Virus record (IMG/VR): IMGVR_UViG_3300030328_001039
Span: 1 to 64,000 of that record
Direction: 5' to 3' (one strand)
DNA length: 64,000 nt
Origin: a virus
Shown: positions 2,778 to 44,500 of the stretch, piece by piece
How positions within the stretch are numbered: position 1 is the stretch's first letter
How the letters are laid out: each line of letters opens with the position of its first letter
The notes under the pieces: generated by a model
Seen by the model: the letters and a program-made list of their open reading frames with translations, nothing else
Told to the model about the DNA's origin: nothing
Database searches by the model: none
Position numbers and translations under genes: made by a program

Positions 2778-3185
2778 ATGGCAGAATATGGAGAAGCAAG
2801 ACTACAAGTTAGAACACAGTTCGATACTAACCGAATACACATTCAGGGTGTAGGTGAACCTACCGTGAATCGTAAGTATGGTATTGCATTGGAACTACGA
2901 GCACCACCTGAATTGACTGACTGGCTAAGCGAACAAGAACCTACACTGGCAAGTCCAGCAAGTGGCTCTTTGTTGTATGCACCTATGTCAGTCATATCAT
3001 ATGTAGAGCAAGAAGGTACAGTGCAGATACTCATTGAAGGTGAAGAACTGAATCACCCAAAGGGTGCTATGCTTGATGTAAAGGATGAATCAACAGCAGT
3101 GTCTACACTAATCACATTCGTAAAGAACACTAACTCAGGTCTTGTGCTTGAGAGTGGTGAAGTATTTTCAACAGAAGAGGAGTGA
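2778..3185 (+). CDS. hypothetical protein
   Basis: ORF; start reassigned to ATG 2778, downstream of the promoter motif and GGAG. Confidence 0.7.
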   Translation: MAEYGEARLQVRTQFDTNRIHIQGVGEPTVNRKYGIALELRAPPELTDWLSEQEPTLASPASGSLLYAPMSVISYVEQEGTVQILIEGEELNHPKGAMLDVKDESTAVSTLITFVKNTNSGLVLESGEVFSTEEE

Positions 3186-15376: not shown

Positions 15377-16378
15377 ATGGCGGGATTTGGTAAGACGAAA
15401 GAAGCAAACAATGCAGAAAAAGAAGAGAAGGTACTGGAGGAAACTCCAGCGGTCAAGCGTACTGACGCTGACCCCTTTGCCTCTCTACGCAATGAACTAG
15501 AGATGATGGACAATACACCACAGACTCATATCTTCATGGGTATCGCAGGGCATGACAACACTGGTAAGACGGCTATCGTAACTGATGCCTTTACTAAGTG
15601 GTTGGCTGCTCCTGAGAGAACAGAACAGGAGAAAGAAATGCAACTGTGGATTATGGACTTTGAAGGTGGGGGTGCTGCTAACAAGTCAGCATTCCATCGT
15701 GACAATGACAACATCAAGATTTTTGAGCCGTGGGTTATGATGAAGAATGACAGCACTGCTTACAACTATCCTGAGACACATCTTCGTGTCATGGGTATCA
15801 CTCAGTTCGCTAATGATATTGCTCAGAAGCAGCGTGACCCCGAATACACTGGCCCTCGTCTGTGGGGATTCCATGTTACTGGGGTAGACCTTTGGGATAG
15901 CGTATGTGTAAACTGTATGCGTATCGTAGATTTGAACATCGCTAAGGATGGTATTGAGGCTGCTGACTGGAATAAGAAGGTAGGCCACCAGTGGGATTGG
16001 GCTATTCGTAAGACTCGGTTTCACCAACTCACTGGGCTATGCCGTGGCTTGGTAAAGTCAGGAGTGCGTGTCTTTTGGGAGACTCACCTACGATTGACTA
16101 ACTACTCTTGGGGTAAGAATGAGGACACTGCTGCTACATGGCGACCTGACTGGGAGAAGGCAAGTAACAACTTTGTCTATCAGATACTAATTTGTGAGCG
16201 TCAAGATACTCTTGACGAGGACACTGGTGATGTAGTCAAGTCCGAATACACTATTCGATTTGACAAGAGCAAAACCAATGCACGACTACAAGGACAGAAG
16301 AGGACTACACTCGTTACTGAGGCAGGTAAAGAACCACAGTGGTTCGGACTACCTGAACTCTATGACGGTACACTTTGA
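15377..16378 (+). CDS. Sak4/AAA_24-like RecA-fold ATPase (single-strand annealing/recombination)
   Basis: Walker A AGHDNTGKT, MDFEGG; adjacent to SSB-like gene. Confidence 0.7.
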   Translation: MAGFGKTKEANNAEKEEKVLEETPAVKRTDADPFASLRNELEMMDNTPQTHIFMGIAGHDNTGKTAIVTDAFTKWLAAPERTEQEKEMQLWIMDFEGGGAANKSAFHRDNDNIKIFEPWVMMKNDSTAYNYPETHLRVMGITQFANDIAQKQRDPEYTGPRLWGFHVTGVDLWDSVCVNCMRIVDLNIAKDGIEAADWNKKVGHQWDWAIRKTRFHQLTGLCRGLVKSGVRVFWETHLRLTNYSWGKNEDTAATWRPDWEKASNNFVYQILICERQDTLDEDTGDVVKSEYTIRFDKSKTNARLQGQKRTTLVTEAGKEPQWFGLPELYDGTL

Positions 16379-16530: not shown

Positions 16531-17286
16531 ATGACTAAGATACAGATTGACAGAAAACAGTTGTTGGATTTCCTATCCGACTTTGGTAAAAACGCTGAGG
16601 ACTTGCGTATCAAGTTCGCTGATGGTAAGATGACAGCCTCGGTAGCATTCATTTCTCACTACTTGTCTAAGACGAGAAAGGTAGAGGGTTCTATACTAGA
16701 GGCAGGTACACTAGATATTACTGAACTTGTCAAGGTTCGACAGTTCATCAAGGCTGCAAAGAATGACTTAGTGACCATCAGGCAAACAGGTTCAGCAAAG
16801 ACACTGAACATTACTTGTGGTTCGTCTAAGATTTCTATGCCTACATCTTCTACGATTGTCAGTGCTGCTAAGGCTGTGTTGTTTCAGAAGTTGATTGATG
16901 AGGCAGTCGAATCTAAGTGGACTAAGTTTCATTCATGCGACCTGAATACATCAGGAGTCATCACATTGGATGAGTTGTCTACTGTGTCAAAGATGAGAGG
17001 TATTCTCAACAGCACTCCTATCTTCAAGATTACAGCAAACCCAAGTGAGAATGAGTTTCTCATATCATCAGGTAAGCGACATGAAACGAAGTTGTTCACT
17101 ACGCTTGAGTTGCGTGATTCTACTGGCCCAGTTACAGGCAGCGTGAGTTCTACATTTGGTTCATGGTTCATGGATAACATAGCACTGCTTGGCAAAGGAG
17201 AGGCTACTATACACATGGGTGAGACGACTATCATAGCACTTGAGAAGGATGATGATTTACTGGTGATTATAGACCAAAGGGTGTGA
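16531..17286 (+). CDS. putative PCNA-like DNA polymerase sliding clamp (divergent)
   Basis: About 251 aa with two similar helix/strand halves, ends LLVIIDQRV; located between the RFC operon and polB; AGGTGA SD. Confidence 0.6.
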   Translation: MTKIQIDRKQLLDFLSDFGKNAEDLRIKFADGKMTASVAFISHYLSKTRKVEGSILEAGTLDITELVKVRQFIKAAKNDLVTIRQTGSAKTLNITCGSSKISMPTSSTIVSAAKAVLFQKLIDEAVESKWTKFHSCDLNTSGVITLDELSTVSKMRGILNSTPIFKITANPSENEFLISSGKRHETKLFTTLELRDSTGPVTGSVSSTFGSWFMDNIALLGKGEATIHMGETTIIALEKDDDLLVIIDQRV

Positions 17287-17290
17287 TTGA

Positions 17291-17437
17291 ATGAACACAG
17301 CAGAATTGATGGAATTGATAGAAGAAAGAGATGTAACAGCAGCAAGAGTTTGGAAACTAGAAAATGAACTATCTATTGTTGTTAAAAGGCTAAATGAATT
17401 AAATAAACAGATTAAAGATGGTAATGTGATAGAATGA
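17291..17437 (+). CDS. 48-aa coiled-coil micro-protein
   Basis: Read manually (MNTAELMELIEERD...NVIE); ATGA overlap with polB start. Confidence 0.5.
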   Translation: MNTAELMELIEERDVTAARVWKLENELSIVVKRLNELNKQIKDGNVIE

Positions 17438-19848
17438 TTATTGACTGGTATTACCCTGCTGAGTCTGACAACTTTGGAGAGCCTAATCTATACTTGCGTA
17501 CTCGTGACAAGCATGGTACGCTGCAAGAAGAGCACATATGGCCTGAAGATGATAGGTATGTAAAGCCGCATTGTTGGATTCCAGTAGATACTCCTGAGTG
17601 GAAACTCAATCGTATGATGGGTAGATACCCCAGTGCTAAGATTCATCGAGACATTCGTACCAAAGGTATTGACAAGAAACCACTGATGAAAGTCGAGGTA
17701 GACAAACCCACAGACCTTTGGGATATTAAGGATGAAATGCCTACTTATGAAGCAGACTTGAATTATCTCGACCAAGTGTTACTGCAACTATATCCTGACA
17801 AACTACCTGAGTTCAAGCCTCGTGTATGGTACTTTGATTTGGAGTGGGACACAAAGGAGGACTTCACATCAGTTATGGCTGTAGTGGATAGCGACCTTGA
17901 CACTCCTGTTGTATTCGCATGGGCTGATTGGGAGAAAACTAACTGCCCTCAGCCTACACGCTCGACCCCAAGTGGCCCGATAGATAAAGAAGTCCGAGGT
18001 CAAAAATACACTCTCTTCAATCACTCTTCTGAAGCAGAAATGCACGAGAGTTTCATCAAGTTCTTACACAAGCGTGACCCCGATATTCTCGTAGCCCATG
18101 CTATCATGTGGGCTGACTTACCACACCTTATGCGTAGACTCAAAGACCCTGACCAACTTTCACCACTTGGTCAAGTGATTAGACCATTCAAGGGTAGAGA
18201 CGGTTACAAAGATACTCAACAGCCTATCAAGGGTAGAATATGTTTTGACTCAGCAGCACCTTGGAAATCAGGTAGTGGCTTTGAATCCTTATGGCAGAAG
18301 TCAGGTAGAGGACAATTACCTAATCGTAAGTTGAATACCATAGCAGAGCGACTTGAACTTGGTAGCAAACTGACTGAGGAAATTGAGGGTATGACTGTTC
18401 ACAATGGTTGGTACGAATACTGGAGTGACTTCGTAGATTACTGTCTCCTTGACACTACGCTACTGCGTGACATTGACAAGAAACTCAATGCCATTGATTT
18501 CTTCGTAGCAGTACAACAGTTATGTGGTGTATCATTTGCCAGCACACACAAGGTCACTCGATACTTTAGAGGTCTTGTTGGTAGGAGGACTAAAATGAAA
18601 GCCAAGAGTGCTATCAATAATAGGCGTGAAGCATTGACTGCTGCACACATACCTGACCCTATTCCCGGTAGACATGAGGGTGTAGCCATTGTAGACTATG
18701 CCTCACTATATCCAAACATCATTCTCAGTGACAATTTATGTTACACTACTAAGCGTGACCATCCGACTACCACTACCAAGACATTGGATAATGGTTCACA
18801 CTGGTGTCAGAAAGAGAAGGGTCTGCTACCTTCTATTGTTGAAGAAATGCTCGCTCTTCGTGCTGAATACAAAAGGCTCATGCGTGACGCTATAGACCCT
18901 GATGAGAAGTTGGGGTACGACATGATGCAGACCGCAGCAAAAGTCCTTGTCAATGCCCTATACGGTATGACGGGAATGAAGTCTGTTCAAGGTATGTGGA
19001 TTGATAATGATATAGCAGCCGCTATCACATACAGAGGGCGTGAGGCTATCCAACATTTGCTAAAGGAGAGTGAAGAGCAGGGCTACAAGTCACTGTATGG
19101 TCATACTGATTCAGCGTTTATTCAAGTTCCATTCGATGATGCTGAGCCACTCGCTAAGCATCTTACTCAAACTGCGAAGGATAAGTTGAACTTACCAACA
19201 ATGGAGGTTGAACTTGAAGCATACTTTGACTACTGGATTACTGCTCCAGTGAAAAACCGTTACTTCGGTATCAAGGTGTGGCCTGAAAAGAGCAAGGGTG
19301 AAATGAAGATTAGTGGTTATGAAATCAAAGCCTCTAGTTCTTCACGGATTACCAAACGCATTCAAGAAGTGGCTATGCAAATGATAGGCACTGGTAAAGA
19401 CGAAGAGGCTGTGACTGATGTACTGAGAGAAGTAAGCCTCCAAGTTAGAAACGGTGAAATACCAATTGAAGATGTGGCTTGCTCTTCTCGATTGACTATG
19501 GCTTTCAAAGATTACAAGAGCCTACCAGCACCAGCAAAGGCTGCTATGTATTACAATGAACATGTCGCTACTAATGCCGATGAAAGATGGGCTAAGGGTG
19601 ACAGTGTATCATGGATTTATGTCAAGGGCTTCAACAATGATGTACCTGACTATTACACTCTCAACGGGGAGAAGAAGAAGGTAGACTTCGTTGCTTTCCG
19701 TGATAAGTCTGAGTTGAAGAACTACACCATAGACTGGGATAAAGTGCTCAGTGTAATGGTTAAGTCTAAACTCATGCGAATATACGAGAGCCTTGACTGG
19801 GAACTAGATGCTGCCGCTGGAGCGACTATGCCTAAGTCATATTTTTAA
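17434..19848 (+). CDS. polB: family B DNA polymerase
   Basis: ExoI FDLEW, ExoIII YCLLD, motif A DYASLYPNII, motif B KVLVNALYG, motif C YGHTDS, KNRY. Confidence 0.97.
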   Translation: MIIDWYYPAESDNFGEPNLYLRTRDKHGTLQEEHIWPEDDRYVKPHCWIPVDTPEWKLNRMMGRYPSAKIHRDIRTKGIDKKPLMKVEVDKPTDLWDIKDEMPTYEADLNYLDQVLLQLYPDKLPEFKPRVWYFDLEWDTKEDFTSVMAVVDSDLDTPVVFAWADWEKTNCPQPTRSTPSGPIDKEVRGQKYTLFNHSSEAEMHESFIKFLHKRDPDILVAHAIMWADLPHLMRRLKDPDQLSPLGQVIRPFKGRDGYKDTQQPIKGRICFDSAAPWKSGSGFESLWQKSGRGQLPNRKLNTIAERLELGSKLTEEIEGMTVHNGWYEYWSDFVDYCLLDTTLLRDIDKKLNAIDFFVAVQQLCGVSFASTHKVTRYFRGLVGRRTKMKAKSAINNRREALTAAHIPDPIPGRHEGVAIVDYASLYPNIILSDNLCYTTKRDHPTTTTKTLDNGSHWCQKEKGLLPSIVEEMLALRAEYKRLMRDAIDPDEKLGYDMMQTAAKVLVNALYGMTGMKSVQGMWIDNDIAAAITYRGREAIQHLLKESEEQGYKSLYGHTDSAFIQVPFDDAEPLAKHLTQTAKDKLNLPTMEVELEAYFDYWITAPVKNRYFGIKVWPEKSKGEMKISGYEIKASSSSRITKRIQEVAMQMIGTGKDEEAVTDVLREVSLQVRNGEIPIEDVACSSRLTMAFKDYKSLPAPAKAAMYYNEHVATNADERWAKGDSVSWIYVKGFNNDVPDYYTLNGEKKKVDFVAFRDKSELKNYTIDWDKVLSVMVKSKLMRIYESLDWELDAAAGATMPKSYF

Positions 19849-19857
19849 GGTGATAAA

Positions 19858-19995
19858 ATGACTAAAACAAGACAAACAAAATTAACGGAGTATGGAATGA
19901 CATTTGAAGGACAGACAAAACTCACTGAGTTTGGTATGACTTTTGAGGCTGATATAAAAAGGAACAGTAAAGACCAAGTTGGTGAAGAGGAATGA
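19858..19995 (+). CDS. 45-aa tandem PIP-box-like micro-protein
   Basis: MTKTRQTKLTEYGMTFEGQTKLTEFGMTFEADIKRNSKDQVGEEE; AAGGTGA SD; the repeat copies differ almost only synonymously; ATGA overlap with next gene. Confidence 0.7.
   Translation: MTKTRQTKLTEYGMTFEGQTKLTEFGMTFEADIKRNSKDQVGEEE
19948..19966 (+). promoter_or_regulatory. degenerate early promoter motif copy (GCTGATATAAAAAGGAACA)
   Basis: Two mismatches to the 19-mer; next ATG 19992. Confidence 0.4.
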
Positions 19996-20459
19996 CATCG
20001 TTTAGAATGAAGTGTGCAAAGATAGCAGCGACAGTAGTAAATCTACTTGCTGAGAAGAATGAACAGTATGGTGATAGCGCATTTGACCCTATCCGATTCT
20101 TTAGCGACCTACCCCCTGATGCTGGTTTAAGAGTGAGGATTGATGATAAACTCAGTAGACTCATGCGAGGGAGTGATACCATTGAGTCTGACATTGATGT
20201 GATTGAGGACTTGATTGGTTACTTCATTCTACTACGATTGACAATGGAGGATAAAAGACCTGAACCACAGCCACTTTCAGAAGGAGCAGAAGGAGAGTTA
20301 GACTACTACAGAAACAAGGACTTCGACCCTTATCACCCTCAAGGGGGAATAGGGGGCGACCATAGCCCATTTATCCCACCTGAAAAGATTTCTACCGGGG
20401 AAAGAATAGTAAGAAGGTACAACAAGTTCGGTGGTGAAGATGAGGTTCAACCCGAATGA
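19992..20459 (+). CDS. DUF1599/Nmad1-like all-alpha NTP-pyrophosphatase-fold protein
   Basis: KNEQYGDS...RIDDKLSRL...EDLIGYFILL signature. Confidence 0.7.
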   Translation: MTSFRMKCAKIAATVVNLLAEKNEQYGDSAFDPIRFFSDLPPDAGLRVRIDDKLSRLMRGSDTIESDIDVIEDLIGYFILLRLTMEDKRPEPQPLSEGAEGELDYYRNKDFDPYHPQGGIGGDHSPFIPPEKISTGERIVRRYNKFGGEDEVQPE

Positions 20460-21528
20460 GACTACTGTTCACTGGTGCGAAGCGTGTGATGTAGTAGTGA
20501 AAGATGCTGACGAAGGCAAAGGTTGCTCAATCTGTAACGACTATGACTGCATTGTAGAGAAGTCAATGAATACTTTTCCTGAGTACCTAGTAGATACTCA
20601 GTACCCTTATCCTGAAATGTTTGAGTCGTATGACAAGAGCGCATACAACTGGCAACCTAGCATGGAGGATAAGATACTCCGTGTAACTAAGTCATCGCTA
20701 GGTACTTTTGATTTCTGTCCTAAGCAGTATTATTTTCAAAACATACTAGGAATGAGGGGTGAAGAACAAGACCATCACATTCGTGGGTCAAATGTTCACG
20801 ATGCAGTGGAGTGGTTTTGGAAAGAGTCACACACAAGTCTACCAGTTGTTAATGAAATGATAAACGAGGGAAAGGTAAACACTGCTAAGATGGAGTTGCG
20901 TAAAGCACTACCCAAGCCTCCAACTCCCTATGTCTATGGTGAAGAGCCTCAACTTAATCAGTATGTAGACTGGCAATTTGAAAGGCTATTACAAATGCAG
21001 AACAATCCTAAAGATTGGTTTCCTATTGCTAATGAAGTAGAGATTCATTCAACAAGAGTAGTGGTAGCCACTGATGGTAGAGTAATACCAATTCACATGA
21101 AGGGGTTCATTGACCGTATCTTCATTGATGATGACCATACTGGTATCATTCTAATGGAGTTGAAAACTGGTAAGTGGGTAGACCGTAAGCGTTCTTCTAT
21201 GCGTGCTGAAATGCAGTTCTATCGTATGATGCTAGAGCATAGCCCTCACATCGAATACCTACCTGTTGTCGGCTGGGGCTGGCAGTTTCCGGGCGGGGGT
21301 ATCAATGGTGGCGAAGGTGCTATGTGGGATTACGAGAGCGTAAAAGGGCCGGGTGGTCGGTACGCTCCTAAGACTGTAGAGAAGAGGCTTGTACGCTTGA
21401 TTGATGCACATTTGAATGATGATTTCCCTGCTGAGGCTCACGAAGCGAAGTGTGCTTGGTGTGACTTTATGGAAATGTGTCCAGCGTGGATGGGTGATTT
21501 AGCAATCGACCCTGATGATATGAGGTGA
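20431..21528 (+). CDS. Cas4/RecB-like PD-(D/E)XK exonuclease with Fe-S cysteines
   Basis: CPKQYY, GSNVH, GFIDRI, ELKTG, QFY, CAWCDFMEMCP. Confidence 0.85.
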   Translation: MVKMRFNPNETTVHWCEACDVVVKDADEGKGCSICNDYDCIVEKSMNTFPEYLVDTQYPYPEMFESYDKSAYNWQPSMEDKILRVTKSSLGTFDFCPKQYYFQNILGMRGEEQDHHIRGSNVHDAVEWFWKESHTSLPVVNEMINEGKVNTAKMELRKALPKPPTPYVYGEEPQLNQYVDWQFERLLQMQNNPKDWFPIANEVEIHSTRVVVATDGRVIPIHMKGFIDRIFIDDDHTGIILMELKTGKWVDRKRSSMRAEMQFYRMMLEHSPHIEYLPVVGWGWQFPGGGINGGEGAMWDYESVKGPGGRYAPKTVEKRLVRLIDAHLNDDFPAEAHEAKCAWCDFMEMCPAWMGDLAIDPDDMR

Positions 21529-31160: not shown

Positions 31161-32588
31161 CTACTCACCTCTATTTACAAACTTCAAAGTCTTGCTGCCA
31201 CCAACGGATTCTTTGTCGCCACTTCTACCTACGACACCTCGACCCATACCTCTACCAATGATGAAACCATCGCCTGATACACCGTGGCCTACTACCTCTG
31301 TGATAACAACTGATATGATTTCTAAGTCACCGAATAAAGCCATGTTCTTCTCAACAATCTGCTCGATTGAATCTTCTAGGTCGCCTGTATTTTTAGTGCC
31401 TTCAAGCAATCCTTGTAGTACACCTTCTACACCACTCTCTACACTCAAGAATACAAGGTCGGCAGTATTACTAGCGAGTTTGTGTCTAACCTCTACCAAT
31501 ATCTTTCTCTGACCATCGTACTCAATAATCATACCCGGTCTTAAATCCCAAGAGTTAGGGTGACCAATACTTGTTAAATTACCAAGCATGACTGAGTTGG
31601 CTTTGAGTATGTTACGCCCTACTTCTCTTGCTTGCTCGTTACTGCGTACAGTAAAATCACCGACAACTTGCGGCTCTTCTAATACCTCTCCGGCACGACC
31701 TGACTGCTTTTCTGAATTGTTTACCTCTGCGTAAGCAGTATCGTTTACAGCCGTAGCCACGCCTTCTACAATAACTCGATTTGATATGTTCTCAACTGGG
31801 TTGTTGATAGCAGGGCCAACACGAGCGTTAGCGTCTATGAATCTACTCTTTTCTTCAAATTGGAATGGAACATAAAGCAAGTTACCAAACCTGTCAAAGT
31901 GAATAACCCTACCGTCATGGCGACTAATAAATCGCATAGCATCTACAAGTGTTATGCCGTGGAAATCTACACCAAGGAAACTACTACTGTGAAGCCTTCT
32001 ATCTACCTCAGAGTTGCTTGGACTCATAGGTAGTGCTATGTTCACGGATGTAAGAGAGTCAGCAATATCTTTACTAATGCGTAATGCCAAGTCTGTAGTT
32101 CTTAAACCAGCATCAATAGACTGTCCAAAGTGTGCTTGTCTACCTACAAATCCAAGCGACTCTAGTGTTTTACCCTTGGTGTTTCTAACAGCGAATGTAG
32201 TACCAGTGCCGCTAGAAATTACTGAAGATGTTCGTAGTCTCTCATGCTCAGCATCTTTACCATAAAGCAGCACTGGTTTGTTTTTGTCAGTGTCGCTGGT
32301 GATTGATGAATCTAAGTAAACAATTGCTCCCTCGTAGTTTCTACCATGCGTACCTGTATGTTTTAGAATTACAGAATCTTGCAGTTCGGTCAAGGTGTAA
32401 GTATGCGGGGTGGCGATACCATAGTTAGCAGTCTTGCGCTGCCTCACTGTGACTTTCTTCTCCAAGTTTCTCTGTGGGGTATACTCACCAAGATGCAGAG
32501 CATTATCCACAAACTTTGGTTTACGAACCGCTTTCATTACAGCATCTGTATCTGCTGTCGCTCGCTTGTCCTTGAGTAAACCCATCAC
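31161..32588 (-). CDS. putative tail-tip hub protein
   Basis: HFDRFGNLLY, NRVIVEG, LRPGMII...LVEVRH motifs typical of hub/Tal-like proteins; position. Confidence 0.6.
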   Translation of the reverse strand: MMGLLKDKRATADTDAVMKAVRKPKFVDNALHLGEYTPQRNLEKKVTVRQRKTANYGIATPHTYTLTELQDSVILKHTGTHGRNYEGAIVYLDSSITSDTDKNKPVLLYGKDAEHERLRTSSVISSGTGTTFAVRNTKGKTLESLGFVGRQAHFGQSIDAGLRTTDLALRISKDIADSLTSVNIALPMSPSNSEVDRRLHSSSFLGVDFHGITLVDAMRFISRHDGRVIHFDRFGNLLYVPFQFEEKSRFIDANARVGPAINNPVENISNRVIVEGVATAVNDTAYAEVNNSEKQSGRAGEVLEEPQVVGDFTVRSNEQAREVGRNILKANSVMLGNLTSIGHPNSWDLRPGMIIEYDGQRKILVEVRHKLASNTADLVFLSVESGVEGVLQGLLEGTKNTGDLEDSIEQIVEKNMALFGDLEIISVVITEVVGHGVSGDGFIIGRGMGRGVVGRSGDKESVGGSKTLKFVNRGE

Positions 32589-35500
32589 GCATCACCACTG
32601 TGGTCTGATGTGTTGAACGATACATCTTCTTTATGCCCTTTACTATGCAGCGATTGACTGAACCTTGATTTAACAGTGTAGTCCTTACCTTGTCCTGTTC
32701 TTCTAGGAGCATCGCTCTTGAAATGCTGTAGGGTATTTTCACTTATGACAAGTCTAGTAACGCTACTCTTTAATGTCGTTTTGTCAAAGCCAGTAACCCC
32801 CGTACCCGGCAACTTCGGGCCTTTTGACACCGGCAGAGTGTCACTGCTAGACTCAACTAAGTACACTGGTTGGTACGGGGCTGATGTGTTAGGGTTAGTA
32901 GCACGCATGTATGACCCACTGCTCGCTCTACCGCTTGGTGTTGAGTAGGTAAACAACCCATACTTACCACCAGCAGTGGCGGTAAATGCAGTGCTACCAT
33001 TTTGTTTACTGCCGCTGTGTAGAGCCAATGCTGGTCTAAATACTGCTATGTGTTGATTGTCAAGTAATCGAATAGGTCTGAGCATAAACTGCACAGCATC
33101 ATCAGTCATGTTTGTTGGGTTTGCTATCGAACTTGTTGTTTGGTATGGATTGCTTGTTTTATTACCACTCATACCGCTGCGCCCCCATCCTGTATCATCG
33201 AATGGACTGGCGAAACTACGAGCCTCCAAGATGTAAGTTCCACCCATTGATTTGAAGTTAGAAGTATGACTAAATCTCATTACACCACCATGAGGTTGAG
33301 CAGCAAACGATAGCGTAGTCAAGTCATAGTGACCCAGCGTTTGAGAGCCTGACTGCATACCACCCTGTAGCACAACTCTTTGTCCTACACCTCTGTTAGT
33401 GTGTAGGCTATGTGCCTCTGAGTTAATGGCTACCATGTTGCTATTACTGCCAGTCAAAGATTCTATTGTATCACCGTCTATACCAATTCTTGGAGAAGAG
33501 CGAGAAATAGCATCTTTGTGTACTGATGTACCACTGATTGATTCTACCTTGTCGCTCACTGTTGCTTCAGGTTTTAACAAACCATCCTCGTCTACCTCTA
33601 GTCTACTACTGATACCTCTTACAATTTCACTTGCTTGCAGTACATCGTTTCTTGGGCGAATTAGACCTTCACCAAATGTAGGTTCTGCTGTGTTACCTGA
33701 TAATACTATACCTGAGTTTTCGTAGACAGCACTGAGTTCTACCAATCTATCTTCGTTAAACTGAGTTGGGAATCGCACACCACGACCATTACCCATATCT
33801 CCTACTCGCATAGCGTTTGTAGGAGCAAATACATCGACTAAGGTAGTGTCTGTATTATTGTTACCAGTGTTCTTTCTACCACCGAATCTAGGAATAGTGA
33901 CTGTAGGTGATGACAATACATTACCGTTAGTGAAATTGACAATACCCTTCAAGTCAAAGATAGGCTTACCGTTATTCCAAACTCGCTCAAATGGTGTACG
34001 ACCATTGGCTCTATCATATTCGTATGCGTCTCCAGCATCCCAAGATGGGTTAATACCGAAACTACGAACTGGGAATCTTCGTACATCTTCACCACGAGTA
34101 TTGCCCCACCAATCAATCAGATAATACGATACGGCATCTTTGTAATACAACTTCCCCATACCAGCGGAATCGCCCCACCAATCTCTTAGTACAGTGCTCG
34201 CATTTCTTATGGTACGAATAGCACAACCAAATCCTCTTGTCATTCTACGCCCCTCGCTGTAACGAACTTGCCATTCGTACTTGTCAGCGTTCAACATACC
34301 CGCTGCTGTAGTGCTACGCTCGATAATACCAACATAGGTTGTTGGTAAGTTAGTATTGCTTTGTGTTGTATCTCCACCAGCGTAAAGCCACCCGTTGCTT
34401 GTTATGGCTTCGTATTCTACCAGTGGCCCTGCTTTGTAGCCTACTGCAAAGTTACTTGCTCCTGAGTGAGTGGCTTGCTCTTGGTATGCACGCATACCAT
34501 AATGACCCCATTGAGGTCTATTCCAAGCCTGTCTTAACCCAAAGCGATAACCAAACGGATAGGTACGAAGAGTGCTTAACGAACCAATGCTTACACCGCT
34601 AGAAACCGCATAAGTACCAGCATCGTCATCATCCTCCCAATGTGTACCGGCAGCATGTGCATAACTTTGCGGTAAATGCCATGCTGCTGCTGACATAGCG
34701 TAGCCATCCAATCGACTAACTAATGCTCCACCACGACTACCGCAAGGCCAAAAGTTCGTCAGCATAGCAGTTGGCCCGCCTTGAGATGAAATACCAGTCA
34801 TACTGTGTATGTTTGCAGCGGTATCAATTGACCCATCGCCGCCTACATACACAGTATCTCCAGTTACCAAGTTACTGCTTTCAAATATCTTGGTGTAAAG
34901 TGTAATGTTAGCACTACTAACAGTGTTTACTCTACCAAGAACTCTACCCTTTGCGAATAGCACATCATTTGAAGATACACCACTAACAGTTGTGGTCATT
35001 GTTATCACTGTAACAGTAGTGGTAGTAATAGTATGAACAGTTCCAGCGAGTGGTTGAGGGGGCTTTGGTGTTTTCATTTGTAGAGAGAATGGGCCATGAC
35101 TTGCGGTGTAATTAACATCCTGATAGTGTATTGTCTCAAAATGCTGTGGCATACTGTTGTATGCTGCATTGTTTACTGCTCTATCCGTTGTGTGATTTAC
35201 ACCGTTTGTAATCCATGTTCTACTTGCATCGGAATAGAAAGTATGAGGGCGACCCAAATTAGGACTCCAAGCACATAGGTATGCATCGGTTAGGAAAAGA
35301 CTGTTTGTATCTCTTGTACCACTTAGTAACTGTCCTAGATTCTTTGTCATTACACTTTCACTATCTATCTTGAGAATATCATTAACAGATTTTGTAGAGT
35401 ACGGTTTGCTTAATGTCAGTTTAGTACCACTCGTTAATGTAACACCTGTAGGTAGATGGAATATATCAGGCTCATTCATAGTACCTGAACTGTGTGTTGT

Positions 35501-38500
35501 ACCTTGCCTTCTTGTGTAAGTAAATGATACAGTTTCTCCCGTATCAGGGTCAATATACTGTAATTTTTGACCATAATACGGTATCTCAGGGAATAGTGAA
35601 CAGTCATCAACTTGTATAGTAGTAGAAGAACTATGATTTCCTACTACTTTACAAGTAGGAGTAAGACTGACATTCTCCATTATCTTTGAGTAAATATCAG
35701 GGTATATGCTAGGATAACCAGCCAGTGTCAATTGAGCACCTATTGCTCCATAACTCGCACGACAGAACTGATAGTAATTGTCGATACGATACAAGGCGAG
35801 ATGCCTGAAACCAACAGCAGATGCATCAGATGGAGTGCCTTGGTGCATGATACTCCACCACGGAATGTTAGTTGTAAATCCGGGTGTAGCGTCTTTGAAA
35901 GAAACTTCAGATGTAGTAGGGTGATATGGGTGACCTCTACGAGTAAAGTGAGGACTTTCGCTACCTTGAACTCCAAGTGGATTATAAAGCAGCATCGGAG
36001 GGATGTTGGTAAACTGGCTACCGTGGTCAGGGTCGTGGTCTAGTATGACCTCATTCAAGAATATCTCACAGCCTCTTACATCAGCCAATGTAGCCTCGGA
36101 CAATATTAGTGTCACACCACCAATATTAGCAGAGTTAGTTAGTGTGGCGTGTCGCTCTTCATCGTACTTTATTCCTATTACAAGAGCAACTTGCTGACTT
36201 GTGAGACTCGATAATTCTGTACCAGCAGTTGGTAAGCCTGTAGAGTCAGCATTGTTACGATGGAATCCTGTGATTTGTTGTGAGCGCAAGTTTGGTTGGA
36301 TGACAATTTGATACGCCCCAACTTCAGCAGGGTCAGGGAAATGATTGGCTTGAGTATAATTACCCCCAGCCTCAAGCACAATAGAGTGTCCTCCGGCCTT
36401 ATTCATATCTCCAGCAGTGCCTTTTGATGCTAGTATACCGTAACCGTCATACTTGATTTTTGTCTCAAACATTAGGGTAAATGCACCACCGTGAATGTCA
36501 CTCGGCCCTGATGGGTTGGTAGTAAGTGAACCTACTCTTAATGCTGGGTTAAGAGGGAATATTCTCTCTTCAACTGCTGTGGGTATTGATGTTTGATTAT
36601 TTGTTGTACCATCTATTTCAACTAAGTTTTCAGCCAATGAAGTGTAATCTTCGTCACCTAGAGCAGCAAGCCTATCTGAGTTTGCCTTGTCATACAAACC
36701 TGCATACGAAGGATGCGCCCAATGACCCGGCATCATAGGCATAGTAGCATTGACGAAGTGATGACCCATACGAGGAATAGGCATTGGAGTTAGTTGTGGT
36801 TTGCTGTATCTTGAATGAATAGTGGTTTGAGAGTCACCATCAAAGTATAGAGTGTGAGCCATGTCGGGACTGTTACCACTTACTTCTGCGTGGTCACGCA
36901 ATCTTCTTGCTGCGAATATACGAGTGCTACCCGCTGGGATATAGTAAGAAGGAGTAATCGTCAATGTTGTTGTAGCAGGTGGGTTATCAGCAAGGAATTG
37001 GTCAAAGTCAATATCTCCTACCACGCCTTTGAACAAATTAACCTCACCACCAGTTCCGATAGAAGTATACGACACAACAACACTTTCACCCGCTGGATTT
37101 GCGATGCGAAGGAATCTACGGTCACCAGCCACCTCTTTTGTTCCAAATCCAGCATCGAATATAGAAGGAGTAATAGTAGCACTAGCAGTTAGAATAGGAC
37201 TGGCGAAACTACTGACCGTCAAATCTTGATTTACCACACCAGCAGCATGAGTGTAAGTTACTGGGAACTTTTCAGTGTGGCTGTGACCCATCTTAGTGAT
37301 GTGGAAATACAGTGCTCTGTCTTGCTGCTCGTAAGAACTGCGTAGTGAGTTATTGCGTGTCGCCTCTACCCATCCATCACGAGTAGACTCAGGGAAGTTT
37401 TCTCCTTGCGATATGTGTTCCCATCCTACTTCGTTCATAGTTGGCCCTTTTCTCGGCGCCTTCACTACATTGTCAAACAAATGACCAATATGAGAAGCAC
37501 CCAAATCAGGATGAATCATACCACCGTCACCAACGGTTTCAGTTTGGTACGCTTGGATTGGGTCAAAGCCACTACGGACAAGGATATTTCCGGGTATAGA
37601 TTCAGGGTCGGGTAACTGAATCTCAAAGTTAGGAGCGATACCGCTGTTGGCTGGAACTGGCTGTAAACCACTTGCTAGTCTAGTCGATGTTGGTTTATAC
37701 GCTCTGATAATAATACCTAAAGGAGAGCCGCCTTCTAGTGTGTGTACCTGTCCTGTATCATCAACAACGGTAATATCTTCAAATTGTATTTCTTCATTTG
37801 GTATCTCAAGTATACCACCAAGAGCAATAGGGTGCTCTTTTGCTAATGTAGGGTGTGCTATCTCTTGTGCCTGTAGAACTGGCATCATGGCTGAGTTTGT
37901 TGTCTCAAAAGAAAATCGAATGTTACCATACAACTTCTCTCCCATTTGATGAGCAGTTCCGGCAGCATCACCTACTACTGCATTTTTAACACGAGTAATC
38001 CACGGAACTGCTCCTAAACCACGAGCATTTGATGCTGGCATAGTAACTGTACCACCATCCATTCGTTTCCACACAATATGTTCTGTGCTGAAGTTTTTGT
38101 GAGGTGTGCGTTTAAGCACATCGTAAGCGTTTACATCACCAGCCCAAAATACTTCAGATTGATTAGTACCTACATTATGAACCATGTTAGCAGAAGGATT
38201 TGTATTCGCTGTAATAAAATCAGTAGCAAGATTTCTTTCCGCTATATCTCCTTCGTGATTTATAATACCTACATTTTTGTCAATATCGAAGAATAAATCG
38301 CCTGTTTCAGCAAAGCAAGGCTCTGCGTTTGACAATGAAGTATCAGCAGATATACTACCATGTAGGTAGAACTGAGCATCGAAAGGTGCGTTATCCAAAG
38401 CACTTGTTGCTGTATAATCAGCAATTGTAGGCGGTGCTGTGGCATCAACAATCAAAGCCTCAACATTTGGCCCAGCGTTTGCTGGAGCGATAAATCTGTC

Positions 38501-41500
38501 AGCGTTATGGAATCTCTCATCCCATTGAGTAGTACCACCGGCCAAAAGATAATCACCAGTAGCAGTGTATGAATCTCTATCTTTCCTCGCTACTAAACTA
38601 AGTTCACCCTCATGTGCTACTACTAACAACGCACGAGCGTAAGTACCTTGAGGGTGAACCAACTCTTTCTGTAACTCAGGCATAGTTCGCATCACTGGTG
38701 GGTTGTTGAACTGAGCACCGTCAGCCCAGCCTACGACATATGAGCCGAATGCCACTGGGTCATCTACAGAGAAACTTACTTGGTCTGCTTCTGTATCACC
38801 GTCACTTGGGAAATTGTCAAGACTGCGACCCGGTATATCGGTAGGAGGCATACTTTCAGGCGAGTTAGGTAGAGGAGTGGTATGTGGTAAATGTCCTAGT
38901 ATAGTCGCACAAGATGATGCGCCACCATATGGTGAGAACCCAAGCATAGAATGCCAAGCACCTAGACCAGCAGAATAACCACCGTCTACTGGTAAAGTGT
39001 TGAGATAAGAGTACCTTTCACCATGCCACCCAACAGCACCAACTGGTTTTGTTCTATCTATTGCATCAACGATACCGCTAAAGTGAACTGCTCCTATTCC
39101 TTTCTGAAGGTATCTTTCAAAGTCAGCAGAGTTGTCTACACCAAGAGTTGAACTCTTTGACCATATCCATATTTTTGTACCAGTAGTAGGGGCAGGGTGA
39201 GGTAGACTTACTCCTCCTACATTTGAACCATTTTGAGTATTAAACGGGGTAGTGGTGTTAGCATAAATACGCCAAGCCTCACCATCTTCAAACGCTTTCA
39301 AACCTGTGATTTTATTGTTAGATAAAAAGAATCTACAGAATAAATCGCTACCGTTTCTATAGGTAGCACGACTGTGATAACAAGCCCATGCTGCCGTTTT
39401 TACACTAGACGATACAACACCGCCATAATCAGTATCTGCTTCAGTACGCAACCAACCCGAAGTAGGTATACGATTAACAATAGATTGAGTAGCAGTATCA
39501 CTAGCATTGGTATAACCCGTTATTTGTAAATCAATGAAACAGTCACCTGCTTTGAGATTTGATGCTAATGATGCCGTATTACCCAGTGTGTTGTGTGTAT
39601 GCGTAATGGTTACACCGCTGTTTGATGCATTAGGGTTAGGAGATACAGTAATACTAGAACCAGTAAAACTGACAACAACGGTGTTGGCTTGTAACCCAGT
39701 ACCAGTTACAGTTTGCCCCGCTTGCATATTAGGAGGGAATGTACCAGTTACAGGAATTAATGGGTCATTGTTAGTGATATTTCCAGTAAATGTAGATGTA
39801 GTCAAAATACTTCTAGTCATAGCCTGTCCGCTAACTACATTGTTTGAATAACCTAATCCCGCAACCTGAGCATGTGGGGTCACACCACCCGCCCCTCCGC
39901 CGTAAACACTTGATGGTATAGCGGTAGACTCAGCCGCAATCCAACCATAGCGGTCTTGTTTAGTAGAGTTACCCATAGATGGCATGAATGTTCCACCTAT
40001 TGCCTTCAAAGCACCTTTACCGGGGAATGTATTGATTGCTCCTCCGAGTAAACATGCTAACTCTTCTCCATTTTGACAACGGGTAGCATCTACTACAATG
40101 TATTCGTGGTCTACATCACCTTGGACTAATGTTTCCGCTGCAAAAGCAGGTGAACCTGAGTTGTCATTTGAGTAAAGCATCCTTGTAGCCAAAGTCCCTG
40201 CTACTCTAAACGCAGTTTTGTTAATTTGAGTTGTAGTGGTTTGGGCTGGAACTCTAGCGTCATCTGCTTCTCTTGGTGGATTCATGGTAATTTGATTATC
40301 CATCCACGAGCCACCGGGATGGTTACCATTATCCATATGCCAACACAAATCAGCATTTTTAACCATACCATGACCATAAAACATAGCGTGTCTACTTGGT
40401 TGAGCCACAGAGTATGCTCGTGCAACATTATCGGTAAAGTTACCAAAACTGTTGTAATGCTTAAACGCAGCAGCGGTAAATGAACTACCATAGTTTCTAC
40501 CACTTTCGGGTCGCTCCCTCAAAAATACAGTATCAGGAATACCAAGTGATGATTCCCAATTAAACACTTGGCGGTAGTGGTAACTGTGCTTGAGTAATTG
40601 AGTAGCAGCACGCTCAGGCATATAATCGCCATCTGAATTATGAATGTGATTTGGTAAGAAGGCACGACCACCAACCCCGCTTGACATATTTGGTACTTTT
40701 GACCAGCCATTACCAGTGCTAATAGCCGAACCGGGGTGTGGCTCAAAAGTATTATTTGGAGTGGCAGACTCTTGTGTTAATGGGAATGCTTGACCCGGCC
40801 CAAATATAATGAAAGTTGTTTTATTTTCTGTTCCATCTCTATGGTCTTGATACCTCGCAGTCGGGTGTGCAAAGCGTAATACCATAGGAGAAGGAACTTG
40901 CATATGCACGCCAGCAGTATATGGAGCAGCATTGGGGTGAATGTTACTTGGGGTATGCGAGCCTCGTTTTAGGTCTTGAGAAAGAATACTATCTTTGTTG
41001 TAAACTGGTGGGTTAATACTACCACGATGTTGCTTTAACAACGCAGTTGCTGGGAAAAATGCCATGATAGCGTTACAGTCAATTGTAGAGAAAGATGAAA
41101 GAATCTCATTGGCATTTTGAATGCCCGATGAACCAGTCGGCCCATTTGCATACGGATGTGTATTATGCTCCGAATAGTCATTTTGAGTACCATCATTTAT
41201 GTCAATAGTAGCCCCACTAAACCCACCGCCAAAGAATAGAGGAACATAGTTATCAGGGCTATCACGAGCACCTGTAAAACGAATAATTGGTACAGAATGT
41301 ACGCTACCAAGAGAGCGTTTACCAGCAAACAAAAATGCCCTTCTAGTGTCATTGTATTTCTGTATAACAATAGTACCACTTGGATTCGATGAAGGCCAAT
41401 CCTCACTTCTCAAGTTCGCATCACTAATTGCCTTGAATGTACTTTCAGCAGCGGCTAATGTTGTTCCTCGGCTTTCAGCAATTGCTGTGTGTTTGTTGTA

Positions 41501-44500
41501 ACTTATTGGGGTTTGAGTACCAAAAGAGTCTACTCTTGTTAAGTCATTTGATGAACCATTGAAAACATGATTTACATTGGATTCTTCGCCCGATGGTTTA
41601 GCAAAATGCCACATAGCATTGTCACTATGTAGAGTTATAGCCGCACCTGCGTGGCCTATAGCACTCATCTTTAGCGTTGGATTGTCAAGATTTGGTAGAA
41701 TTAAGTCACCACTGGATTCAATGAAGTTCTCTCCTATCAAGTTTTTACGCCATGTGTTAGTATCAATTGGGTTGTTTTGTGAGTCTACTATATTTGGAGT
41801 GGGTGTGTTAGAGTTATGGCCTCTACCGCTTGTTGTAATTTGTAAAACACTTGATGGTATATACCCACAGTTTACGCTACGCCCACTATCTATCAAATCA
41901 TTAGTTACTGGTCTATCCCCAGTGCCTCCTATAGACACTCCTTCATCGTCAAGTTTCAAACTCTCAACTTCACCATATTCAATATGACTGGCTCTAATAC
42001 CTGTATCTTGGGATAGACTTGCTGTAAAGAAGTTAGATATGGGTTCAATGTCATTTTTCGTATTGTAAGCCTTAATTTTAATTGACTCTTCAGTGATACC
42101 CCACTCAGCAAATGTTCTACCGTCAGCGGCGTACATTTCTGTGCAATCAAAGAAATGCCCTTTTTGTTTGTTAGGGTTATCTAAGTTGATAGCAAAAGCA
42201 GTTACAGCAGCCATTAATTCATCTGTTATCAGTGTAGTCCAATTAGCAACTGGTGTGATAAGTGCTGATGTAGATTCAGTTGTTTCGCCTACAACATAAT
42301 CACCAGCCTCAAAGACCGGAGCACTGATAGTAGACGAAGAGTGATGTTTATGCCTTGAAACATATGTATCACCGACAACACCGTGGAAAACATGAGTGCC
42401 AGTTTTATCATTCCTTGTTCGATGAGTATAGGAGTACATATTACCCCAGTTACCGTTGATGGATTCTATTAGTGTGAATTGAGCGTTAGTACCTCCTATA
42501 CCACTTACGCTGATTGTATCTCCGTTAATGTAACCACCTTCACCAAGGGATGTAATAGTAACACTTGTGACTGCATTACTACCATTTGTATTGATACTCA
42601 AAGTCATTCCACTACCACTACCGCCTACTCCTATAGCATCTGCATTTGTTTGACCTGCTGTATAACCTGAACCACCAGCGGTTATAGTGGCTGCACCCAT
42701 GTGATTGAATGGGTCTGACAAATGTATGACACCATCTTCAGCAGGGAATCCCATATAGCCTAAAATATCGTGATGGTCACAAGCGTCATATGGAGCATAG
42801 GGGGTGACAGTAATTGTTTGATTCGCCACACTGTAAACTACATTTGCGTTGTAAGAAGCATTTGGAGCAGGTGCTCCTCTCCAATAGTTACCTCTCCAAC
42901 TTGCTAAATTAGCGTTATCAGGTATAGCAGGGAATCTACCAGTTGGGTCACTTATACCATGCATATGTTTTCCAATTGTAAAGCCGCCTTGAGAGCAGTC
43001 TTTGTGATTGAAATAGATAGCAATTTCATTATCCAAAGTTTTTGGTAAAGTTGTATTATCTAAAGCAAAATTGTCACCCATATTTTTGTAAATGTAACGC
43101 AGTCCGTGACTTACTCCTCTATGGTCTTGAAGGCGTAGCCCATAGAGATTGGTGTCTCCTATGTTTTCAGGGAATGTATCAGGTGTAGGTACATGACCTG
43201 TGTATGTAGAAGCCGGGTCTGTGTTACTTACTGTTGTTAGTAAGCCATAATCGTTAGCAAATCTATTATCTCCCTTTCTACCGAATCCCCACTTACCCGC
43301 ATCAGGAGCAAAGCCCGGAATACCAGCCGCTACAAGACCACCAAAGTTTATTCTTGCTACGGCATTAGTACCCACTCTCAATCCTTCAGTAAATGATGTG
43401 TTGAATCCTTCTACTTCAAGAGATTCAGTGTTGAGTGTATTATGGTTTTGACCGCTACCGCTATGCGCTGATACGGCACGCAATCTTGGTGTTGTAGTTT
43501 CATCGTGATTGTTAGAAAACTCCCCTTTTGGTGCTACTGCTTGCATTGATTCATCGGGTTGCGTATACTGTCGTAGAGAAGTAATAGGAGCAAAAGGTCT
43601 GCCGTGTTTATTTAGCGGCATCGGTGCTGGGTGCATATTTTCTCCACTTATTTCATCAGGCATACACCAAAATGTTCTGAATCTACCTCCGTGGCCTATC
43701 ATAAACTCAGGTCTGTAAGGTAATTGCCCCTTACTATTGTCGAGCCATACACAGAAATTACGGCCAGTAGCACCCGGTACAGTGCTGTGAATAATTATTG
43801 AAAATCCTTCTTCGCTACCATCTATATTTTTAACAACCCTACCAAGGTGAGCACGAATGTAACCCATGTGAGTTCCTTTATCGTGAGACTCAAACGCCTT
43901 GTCCTCATCCCACCATACAGCGGGGTCGTGAGTAGAACCAGTTGTAGCAAAGTCAGCCTCACCAGCAACTTTTACGGGATATTGTTTGTTGTTATTATCG
44001 CTGTGGGTGCGCCCTTTTTTAGCAGCAGCCTGATTTATCATACGAACTACTTCAGTCGCTGCTGCTTCGACATTAGTAATACCATCCTTAACGGCAACCT
44101 CTCCTAAATCAATAGTCATCCTTCTTGTGAAATCCATTTGAGTCCACTGAGGCAAGTGTTGTAGTCTTGTTTCATTCATGTTAGATAAATCAAGAGCCTC
44201 AGACCTAATGCCCTTTAATGCAAGGAATGCTGGGATTACACGAGTTCCATCCGGTGTATCGAAGAGAGTAGATGTTTCATCGTTAGTATTGTTAATGTTT
44301 AATGTAAAACTACCTTTGCCATCACCAGCCACAAAAGGCGGTGTTGCTGTAGGTAAGTCATTGACCCTTCTATCAGCGATAAAAATTGTATCTCCATCTT
44401 TGTATAGACTGTTACCATGCCTTCTTACTGTGGCTGTAGCCACTGCTCCACTTGATATTACAACATCTACAGTCATTCCTTTTCCTTTACCATCAGATGT

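Follow-up and report, generated by a model that had tools for sequence, protein, structure and literature searches.

What does a protein of 45 amino acids (aa), with little conserved content beyond two copies of one short motif, do directly behind the DNA polymerase gene of a virus? This question is raised by the first 64 kb of the 95.7-kb linear IMG/VR virus record IMGVR_UViG_3300030328_001039 (hereafter, the window, to which all coordinates refer unless another locus is named), where a small open reading frame (ORF), here called the micro-ORF, follows the gene of the family B DNA polymerase (polB). The two motifs resemble the PCNA-interacting peptide (PIP) box. Sliding clamps are replication hubs that few proteins block; cellular examples are p21 of eukaryotes and TIP of Thermococcales. 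From sequence comparisons, we consider it somewhat probable (roughly 55%) that the micro-protein copies the clamp-binding tail of the polymerase in free, bivalent form and would occupy the PIP pocket of a PCNA-type clamp.

The source genome is a magrovirus (order Magrovirales). These tailed viruses have been assigned to the Poseidoniales, which are marine archaea (PMC5434244, PMC10768690), and the gene set and size of this genome fit the published descriptions, with a linear genome in the ~90–100 kb range, a replication arm and a morphogenesis arm, and virus-encoded PolB, clamp, RFC, primase and nucleases; the host assignment is taken from this literature.

A selected gene encoding two PIP-like motifs

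The micro-ORF and its immediate surroundings comprise the following features.

19846–19848, plus strand: TAA stop codon of polB
19847–19853, plus strand: Shine-Dalgarno-like AAGGTGA, overlapping the polB stop and lying 4 nt before the ATG at 19858
19858–19995 (stop included), plus strand: gene of the 45-aa micro-protein (P0001), with the TGA stop at 19993–19995
19873–19911, plus strand: repeat copy 1, with the PIP-like core Q-T-K-L-T-E-Y-G at 19873–19896
19912–19950, plus strand: repeat copy 2, with the PIP-like core Q-T-K-L-T-E-F-G at 19912–19935
19984–19995, plus strand: 3' end of the micro-ORF, Glu-Glu-Glu-stop, doubling as the GAAGAGGA ribosome site and the ATGA start overlap of the next gene
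19992–20459, plus strand: downstream 155-aa gene (phrog_1485), translationally coupled to the micro-ORF

A sequence-only reading of the window had described the 45-aa ORF, its two 13-codon repeat copies, and the positions of the polB stop, ribosome site and start codon, all of which are present. The first motif begins at residue 6, and Tandem Repeats Finder reports a 39-nt unit in 1.9 copies with 81% matches (19871–19946). The AAGGTGA ribosome site attributed to the micro-ORF is likewise there and is of the same type as those of its neighbors: AGGTGA/GGGTGA-type sites are common to the micro-ORF, the clamp gene, the 333-aa gene, orf99 and the primase gene, and precede 17 of 34 gene starts, against a background of 10%.

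Over the first 12 codons, the two copies differ, as had been noted, at six synonymous codons and by a Tyr/Phe replacement, to which one Gly/Ala change has to be added. By the Nei-Gojobori count, 7.0 of 7.8 synonymous sites differ between the copies compared with 3.0 of 31.2 non-synonymous sites, which is far from chance expectation and bears out the earlier claim of protein-level selection; because the differences are concentrated at synonymous sites, the repeat is upheld as protein rather than as DNA. Among orthologues, the ratio of non-synonymous to synonymous change (pN/pS) is 0.05–0.6 for the micro-protein versus 0.04–0.19 for the C-terminal third of PolB, with most of the replacements in the micro-protein lying outside the motifs. 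Thus, the micro-ORF is a genuine gene under protein-level selection, and the orthologue ratios, together with the ~49 relatives described below, substantiate the proposal of a stand-alone micro-protein.

One part of the protein calls for a different explanation. The C-terminal Gly-Glu-Glu-Glu is largely a by-product of the GAAGAGGA ribosome site and the ATGA start overlap, both of which belong to the next gene. The genes ending at 3185, 7376, 8591, 8965, 19995 and 23181 all have Glu-Glu-Glu ends produced by an embedded GAAGAGGA site of the next, overlapping gene, and C-terminal conservation of such tails should not be taken as functional.

A widespread family with conserved motifs and no predicted fold

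The family was defined from two alignments (A4 and A6) and a profile search of 1.84 billion representative proteins, which returned 29 matches, mostly proteins of 28–70 aa containing both motifs. A search of IMG/VR with two degenerate DNA patterns, describing two motifs 15–30 nt apart, produced 60 loci where ~1–2 would be expected by chance (our own information-content estimate), and ~49 of these are clean small ORFs once matches with internal stops or low complexity are removed. The viruses carrying the micro-ORF span PolB identities to that of the window from 100% down to ~36%. Searches with the micro-protein in Pfam, PHROGs, PDB sequences and the ESM Atlas gave no match, and we found no earlier description of a tandem-motif micro-protein in the literature.

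Members of the family share a layout consisting of a short charged N-terminus, motif 1, a linker of 5–8 residues, motif 2 and a variable end. Motif 2 is followed by nothing (members of 28–30 aa), by a short tail, or by an amphipathic Lys/Leu-rich segment and a tail (up to 69 aa in total); the minimal members, of 29–30 aa, end straight after motif 2 as aromatic-Leu/Ile-COOH. The motif core is Q-T-x-L-x-E-aromatic, nearly always present twice with a Gln-to-Gln spacing of 13–15 residues, and only a few members have a single motif. Conserved in both motifs are Arg(-1), Gln1, Thr2, Leu4, Glu6 and the aromatic residue at position 7, with Gln1, Leu4, Glu6 and aromatic7 invariant or nearly so in both copies across 26 aligned members and ~49 loci. 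The Gln, Leu and aromatic positions emphasized by the sequence-only reading are therefore kept across ~49 relatives, and both copies in the window display the Gln1, aliphatic4 and aromatic7 pattern of a PIP box. Position 8 is more variable: Gly, then Met, in the window, and elsewhere Leu, Ile, Met, Val, Phe, or Gly followed by a hydrophobic residue.

AlphaFold modeling from a 26-sequence alignment produced no tertiary fold (predicted local distance difference test score, pLDDT, 66; predicted template-modeling score, pTM, 0.25), with one-turn helices at residues 9–12 (L-T-E-Y) and 22–25 (L-T-E-F), that is, at motif positions 4–7. As modeled, the micro-protein shows no fold of its own and is predicted to be intrinsically disordered. 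The motifs lie, as PIP boxes do, in a disordered or terminal location and are modeled with a single helical turn, with motif 2 C-terminal in the 29–30-aa members. The L-T-E-Y/L-T-E-F segment corresponds to the 3-10 turn of bound PIP boxes (PMC3504372), and Thr-Glu at positions 5–6 is reminiscent of the Thr-Asp that raises affinity in strong PIP boxes (PMC6881253).

The same motif ends the polymerase of split-PolB magroviruses

The micro-protein is also found in a second group of viruses (L032, L033, L049, L051–L053, L060, L068, L074, L080 and L081), with genomes of 86–90 kb and a split PolB, a hallmark of magrovirus group B (PMC5434244). We compared the tails of the C-terminal PolB protein (PolB-CTD) in five split-PolB genomes that also carry the micro-protein, at the following loci.

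L086, 7320–8258: PIP-ended PolB-CTD
L087, 7175–8107: PIP-ended PolB-CTD
L088, 3165–4109: PIP-ended PolB-CTD
L089, 3521–4402: PIP-ended PolB-CTD
L090, 3106–4140: PIP-ended PolB-CTD

In all five genomes, the extreme C-terminus of PolB-CTD is Q-x-x-L-x-E/D-W-F (Glu in four, Asp in one), which fits the classical place and form of the archaeal polymerase PIP box (PMC3504372). The acidic residue at position 6, unusual for PIP boxes, is common to this tail and the micro-protein. This match greatly strengthens the original interpretation of QxxLxx(F/Y) as a PIP motif, and by sequence the micro-protein appears to amount to the clamp-binding tail of the polymerase, set free and present twice. Bona fide clamp clients of the same system use the motif in these five magroviruses, but not in the window's genome.

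Directly upstream of PolB in these genomes is a 255-aa candidate clamp gene, and farther out in the same direction are two ATPase genes, one of them RFC-S-like (AAA+) and the other of AAA type. The micro-ORF of this group is itself preceded by a 266-aa gene, the product of which is not detectably a clamp. Other proteins of the group have similar ends: the PD-(D/E)XK nuclease encoded after PolB ends in Glu-Ser-Trp-Phe/Leu, a 409–412-aa protein in Trp-Phe-Phe-acidic, and a 208-aa protein in Gly-Leu-Ser-Arg-Trp-Leu-Asp. To judge from their sequences, these Trp-Phe/Trp-Leu tails suggest a network of tail-based clamp clients.

Unsplit magrovirus PolBs (window positions 19800–19848, L009–L021 and L030–L069) have a conserved hydrophobic-Pro-x-x-Tyr/Glu-Trp/Phe-COOH tail, with the variant Pro-Lys-Ala-Tyr-Gly-Trp-Trp. 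In the lineage of the window, the two terminal aromatic residues are kept, position 4 is Pro, and there is no Gln. This tail occupies the position of the split-PolB PIP box and probably represents a derived clamp-binding tail. The premise of the sequence-only reading that this PolB lacks a clamp-binding tail is accordingly doubtful, given the conserved C-terminal hydrophobic-Pro-x-x-Tyr-Phe/Trp.

A search for the motif at the ends of the other proteins, both in this genome and in all loci compared, found only one 372-aa protein. Its gene lies outside the window on the minus strand (genome positions 93383–94501, equivalent to L022:9384–10502), and the protein, which has no family match, has Q-K-R-L-Y-E-F-G at a distance of 18 residues from the C-terminus; two homologues (L023 and L024) keep the motif, but they also keep the whole C-terminal region.

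A candidate partner clamp and a proposed mode of action

The plus-strand arm of the window runs in the order 333-aa gene, 251-aa clamp gene, polB, micro-ORF, 155-aa gene, PD-(D/E)XK nuclease gene and primase-like gene, so that the micro-ORF sits within a clamp–PolB–nuclease–primase operon, with the clamp gene two genes upstream. The features upstream of the micro-ORF are as follows.

15377–16378, plus strand: 333-aa gene in the RFC/clamp-loader slot, by synteny only; kept in all related loci
16531–17286, plus strand: candidate partner clamp of 251 aa, virus-encoded, with a predicted PCNA fold (AlphaFold and Foldseek)
17434–19848, plus strand: polB (Pfam DNA_pol_B, 1e-46); its product has a conserved aromatic tail at the C-terminus, and the gene keeps a stop codon of its own

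The 251-aa protein has no family match at the sequence level. Its AlphaFold model has a pLDDT of 90, and the best Foldseek matches are archaeal PCNAs (E 1e-12, template-modeling score ~0.68); because archaeal PCNAs top its structural matches, we judge that, as modeled, it is a divergent PCNA-fold clamp. The window copy of the 333-aa gene has no Pfam or PHROG match. Magrovirus clamps and other replisome proteins are detectable only with sensitive methods (PMC5434244, PMC10768690).

In the mechanism that we propose, an independent magrovirus gene of the early or replication module would encode an intrinsically disordered micro-protein, the only conserved content of which is two PIP-type motifs 13–15 residues apart, each of the form basic-Arg-Gln-Thr-x-Leu-x-Glu-aromatic followed by Gly-hydrophobic or a hydrophobic residue. 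Each copy would dock on a PCNA-type clamp like a polymerase tail, the Gln entering the Q pocket and the Leu/aromatic one-turn helix filling the hydrophobic pocket that lies beneath the clamp's interdomain connector loop. Because it has no catalytic or DNA-binding domain, the micro-protein could only occupy, block or bridge clamps, and would thus regulate or inhibit clamp clients by competition.

Two targets of this putative clamp binding, host PCNA and the viral clamp, appear about equally likely. If host PCNA is the target, host replication and repair would be blocked, in the manner of p21 or TIP, the virus relying meanwhile on a clamp, loader and PolB that it encodes itself; the patchy, accessory distribution of the gene and the lack of the canonical motif in this genome's replisome fit this version. 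If the target is the viral clamp, the micro-protein would tune the polymerase or the exchange of clients, which fits the identity of the motif with the split-group PolB tail and the place of the gene in the replisome operon.

Several observations weigh against clamp binding as proposed here. By our own geometric estimate, the pockets of one ring lie ~50 Å apart, and the 13–15-residue spacing would be too short to reach two of them; as the spacing cannot span the pockets of one ring, the doubling would more likely serve rebinding or avidity, or the bridging of two rings. Position 8 of the motif in the window is Gly rather than an aromatic or hydrophobic residue. The micro-protein is net acidic and its motif flanks are weakly basic; negative flanks disfavor binding to human PCNA (PMC6881253). 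The viral clamp of this genome may use a different tail, the hydrophobic-Pro-x-x-Tyr-Phe of PolB, and no replisome protein of this genome bears the canonical motif at its termini. The motif core is similar, in addition, to that of the repeats in DUF7487 proteins. Finally, five diverged proteins of 142–144 aa (P0037, P0038, P0040, P0043 and L053) are conserved natural fusions in which a hydrophobic region and a lipobox of sequence Leu-Ala-Gly-Cys come after the tandem motif; such fusions to a lipoprotein signal peptide are unexpected for a PCNA ligand and could point to membrane tethering or to a different partner.

A less likely, more specific form of the host-directed version is an orthogonal clamp system, in which the divergent viral clamp would serve a PolB with a tail drifted to hydrophobic-Pro-x-x-Tyr-Phe/Trp, and the micro-protein, as two canonical PIP boxes, would saturate, cross-link or, when fused, membrane-tether host PCNA. 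Host PolD-dependent replication and repair would then be shut off with viral replication unharmed, and no PCNA poison encoded by a virus of archaea would have preceded the micro-protein, made solely of the polymerase's own tail.

Comparison with known clamp ligands

A close formal precedent is the archaeal PIP box at the C-terminus of PolB, FEN1 and RFC-L (Q-x-x-small hydrophobic-x-x-aromatic-aromatic; PMC3504372, PMC6881253). The micro-protein shares the Gln/Leu/aromatic spacing, the terminal site in a disordered segment and the predicted one-turn helix over positions 4–7, but it is free of any enzyme, tandem, and invariant for Glu6, with Gly, then Met, at position 8 in the window.

The putative mode of action recalls p21(Cip1), the eukaryotic high-affinity competitive blocker of PCNA, which is likewise a disordered PIP-bearing polypeptide that blocks client access. 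The two are not homologous: p21 has one motif, strongly basic flanks and a domain binding cyclin-dependent kinase (CDK), whereas the micro-protein combines two motifs with flanks of weak charge. The p21 PIP box shares with the micro-protein the starting Arg-Gln-Thr and a Thr-acidic-Phe at positions 5–7.

TIP, the Thermococcales inhibitor of PCNA (PDB 5DA7), combines a non-canonical PIP motif with a subsequent 17-residue amphipathic helix (PMC6204406). It is comparable as a small protein of the archaeal world that acts only through PCNA binding, which for the micro-protein is putative, and the longer family members L025, L028, P0010 and P0012 carry an amphipathic Lys/Leu-rich segment after the motifs. 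The window's protein has no such helix, however, TIP is encoded by cells or mobile elements rather than by a tailed virus, and phmmer searches against all PDB sequences, TIP included, gave no match at E ≤10.

The short hydrophobic terminal tails of phage T4/RB69 gp43, gp33 and gp55 compete for one pocket of the virus's own clamp, and gp33 is a small protein that uses the clamp as a platform. Unlike the motifs of the micro-protein, these tails are single and joined to functional domains, and their clamp, gp45, is not a relative of PCNA by sequence.

Alternatives to a clamp ligand

An alternative that we regard as unlikely is that some partner different from a sliding clamp recognizes the motif as a short linear motif or tag, perhaps linked to membranes or secretion, with the free tandem form serving as a decoy or regulator for that partner. 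In the split-PolB group, the micro-ORF always adjoins a gene for a lipobox lipoprotein, and the fusions described above join the two; in addition, a single motif heads an unrelated 125–129-aa protein (P0044–P0047), and the motif is found in three different gene neighborhoods. No known targeting signal has this form, however, and it is not a twin-arginine motif. In most lineages the gene belongs to the replisome operon, where no gene for a membrane protein is close by, and the identical motif at the PolB C-terminus is readily explained by a clamp. The fusions themselves are compatible with a cytoplasmic clamp as the target, as the n-region of the fused signal peptide remains in the cytoplasm. 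The lipoprotein (L053:5815–6243, L049:5274–5881, P0037, P0038, P0040 and P0043) is ~120 aa long and rich in N-glycosylation sequons; whether fused or adjoining, it could be a surface protein of the superinfection-exclusion type. It is not homologous to the 155-aa gene that follows the micro-ORF in the window, and because the downstream genes of the two virus groups are unrelated in this way, there is no conserved two-gene module.

It is less probable still that the micro-protein is a miniature helical repeat of the DUF7487 type (PF24308), a structural or oligomerizing module rather than a disordered ligand. The profile search matched several DUF7487 proteins at E values of 1e-6 to 4e-4 with multiple repeat matches, hhalign of alignment A6 against P0025 gave a probability of 40% (E 3e-4), and the repeat core, Lys/Arg-Gln-Thr-x-Leu-x-x-Tyr-Gly, is similar. 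The five DUF7487 proteins P0016, P0023, P0025, P0029 and P0031 contain 6–9 tandem units of 19 or 23 aa with the core Lys/Arg-Gln-Thr-x-Leu-Glu-Lys/Arg-Tyr-Gly. Their period is thus 19–23 residues, with 6–9 copies in large proteins, as against 13–15 residues in the micro-protein, and the acidic residue is displaced by one position. None of 11 family members matches the Pfam model even at E 10, this genome encodes no DUF7487 protein, AlphaFold predicts no packed fold, and the net acidity of the micro-protein argues against a nucleic-acid-binding repeat. DUF7487 is itself a family without a known function, for which we found no structure or paper.

Genomic distribution speaks to the third alternative, translational read-through or recoding that would give PolB a C-terminal PIP extension, an idea put forward because the two ORFs are in frame. 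They are indeed in frame in the window. We first gathered relatives through the PolB C-terminus (loci L001–L021) and found the micro-ORF in the eight closest (L001–L008). In L001–L006, as in the window, it is in frame with polB, with three sense codons between; L007 and L008, at 80% PolB identity, have it in the +1 frame, with Trp in place of both motif aromatics. The 13 other PolB lineages (L009–L021) have no micro-ORF behind polB. Among the ~49 IMG/VR loci, ~38 have the micro-ORF 4–13 nt behind polB, and the PolBs concerned are 36–46% identical to that of the window. Over all lineages, the offset is +1 in L007, L008, L034, L035, L040, L056, L067 and L069, and +2 in L025, L028, L030, L038, L043 and L055, so that the frame, which had been proposed as a point to compare among relatives, is not preserved.

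Elsewhere the gene is detached from polB: a short homologue of the 155-aa gene separates the two in L070-type genomes, and in the split-PolB group they are ~10 kb apart. In all loci compared, polB keeps its own stop, TAA or TGA. Neither the single-sequence search, which found no longer forms, nor the alignment-based search, which recovered the lipoprotein fusions, yielded a fusion to PolB or another replisome protein. With the frame varying among 0, 1 and 2, the polB stop retained and the gene sometimes away from polB, we dismiss read-through as a conserved mechanism. The micro-ORF moreover has its own ribosome site and ATG, and PolB already ends in a conserved aromatic tail; a read-through or processivity tail is thus very improbable. 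The micro-ORF is an accessory, stand-alone gene, not an extension of PolB.

That the micro-ORF is non-functional, whether as an ORF arisen by chance, an iteron or other DNA repeat, or a spacer holding its neighbors' ribosome sites, would suit its very short length and a C-terminal Gly-Glu-Glu-Glu accounted for by the next gene's ribosome site, but is hardly credible given that copy and orthologue differences fall at synonymous sites, that the motif is kept while PolB falls to ~36% identity, and that the family recurs in varied genomic contexts with varied downstream genes.

Genomic surroundings

The slot behind polB resembles a hot spot for small genes. In lineages without the micro-ORF (L011, L012–L016, L018 and L020), it is often occupied by a small ORF encoding a zinc ribbon with four Cys residues, and in L070, L076 and P0021, one Cys-x-x-Cys element occurs together with the tandem motif. 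On the other side of polB, a 48-aa ORF (17291–17437, plus strand) lies between the clamp gene and polB, its stop overlapping the polB start (ATGA); tblastn matched it only in the closest relative (L002, 79%), and its coding status is uncertain. The morphogenesis arm contains one uninterrupted ORF of 6068 aa (32585–50791, minus strand).

One micro-ORF locus carries a bacterial label: L025, a 30-kb contig (NZQM01000111.1) from a metagenome-assembled genome labeled Parvibaculum, which encodes a 67-aa version in the +2 frame and was the one family member recovered by a scan of genome contigs. The contig shows the magrovirus clamp–PolB–micro-ORF synteny, and the alphaproteobacterial label is most likely a binning error. 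The lineage of the window itself is widespread in geography and time, with DNA near-identical to positions 19300–20500 found in marine, seawater and estuary metagenome runs from at least 12 studies dated 2014–2025; among the matches listed, none was an RNA run.

Implications for magrovirus replication

The micro-ORF is a clear case of a functional gene that falls under the usual annotation cut-offs, and it represents a new, widespread family that, by analogy, most likely works like known PIP-peptide clamp blockers. If this is true, a family present in ~49 contigs of globally abundant ocean viruses would have doubled the clamp-binding tail of the polymerase into a gene of its own, and would constitute a natural peptide ligand of minimal size for the PCNA of archaea or viruses. 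The two forms of magrovirus PolB tails, the canonical PIP box and the Pro-containing variant, make the co-evolution of clamps and their clients directly testable. The family would likewise offer a handle on how uncultured viruses of Poseidoniales seize or organize replication.

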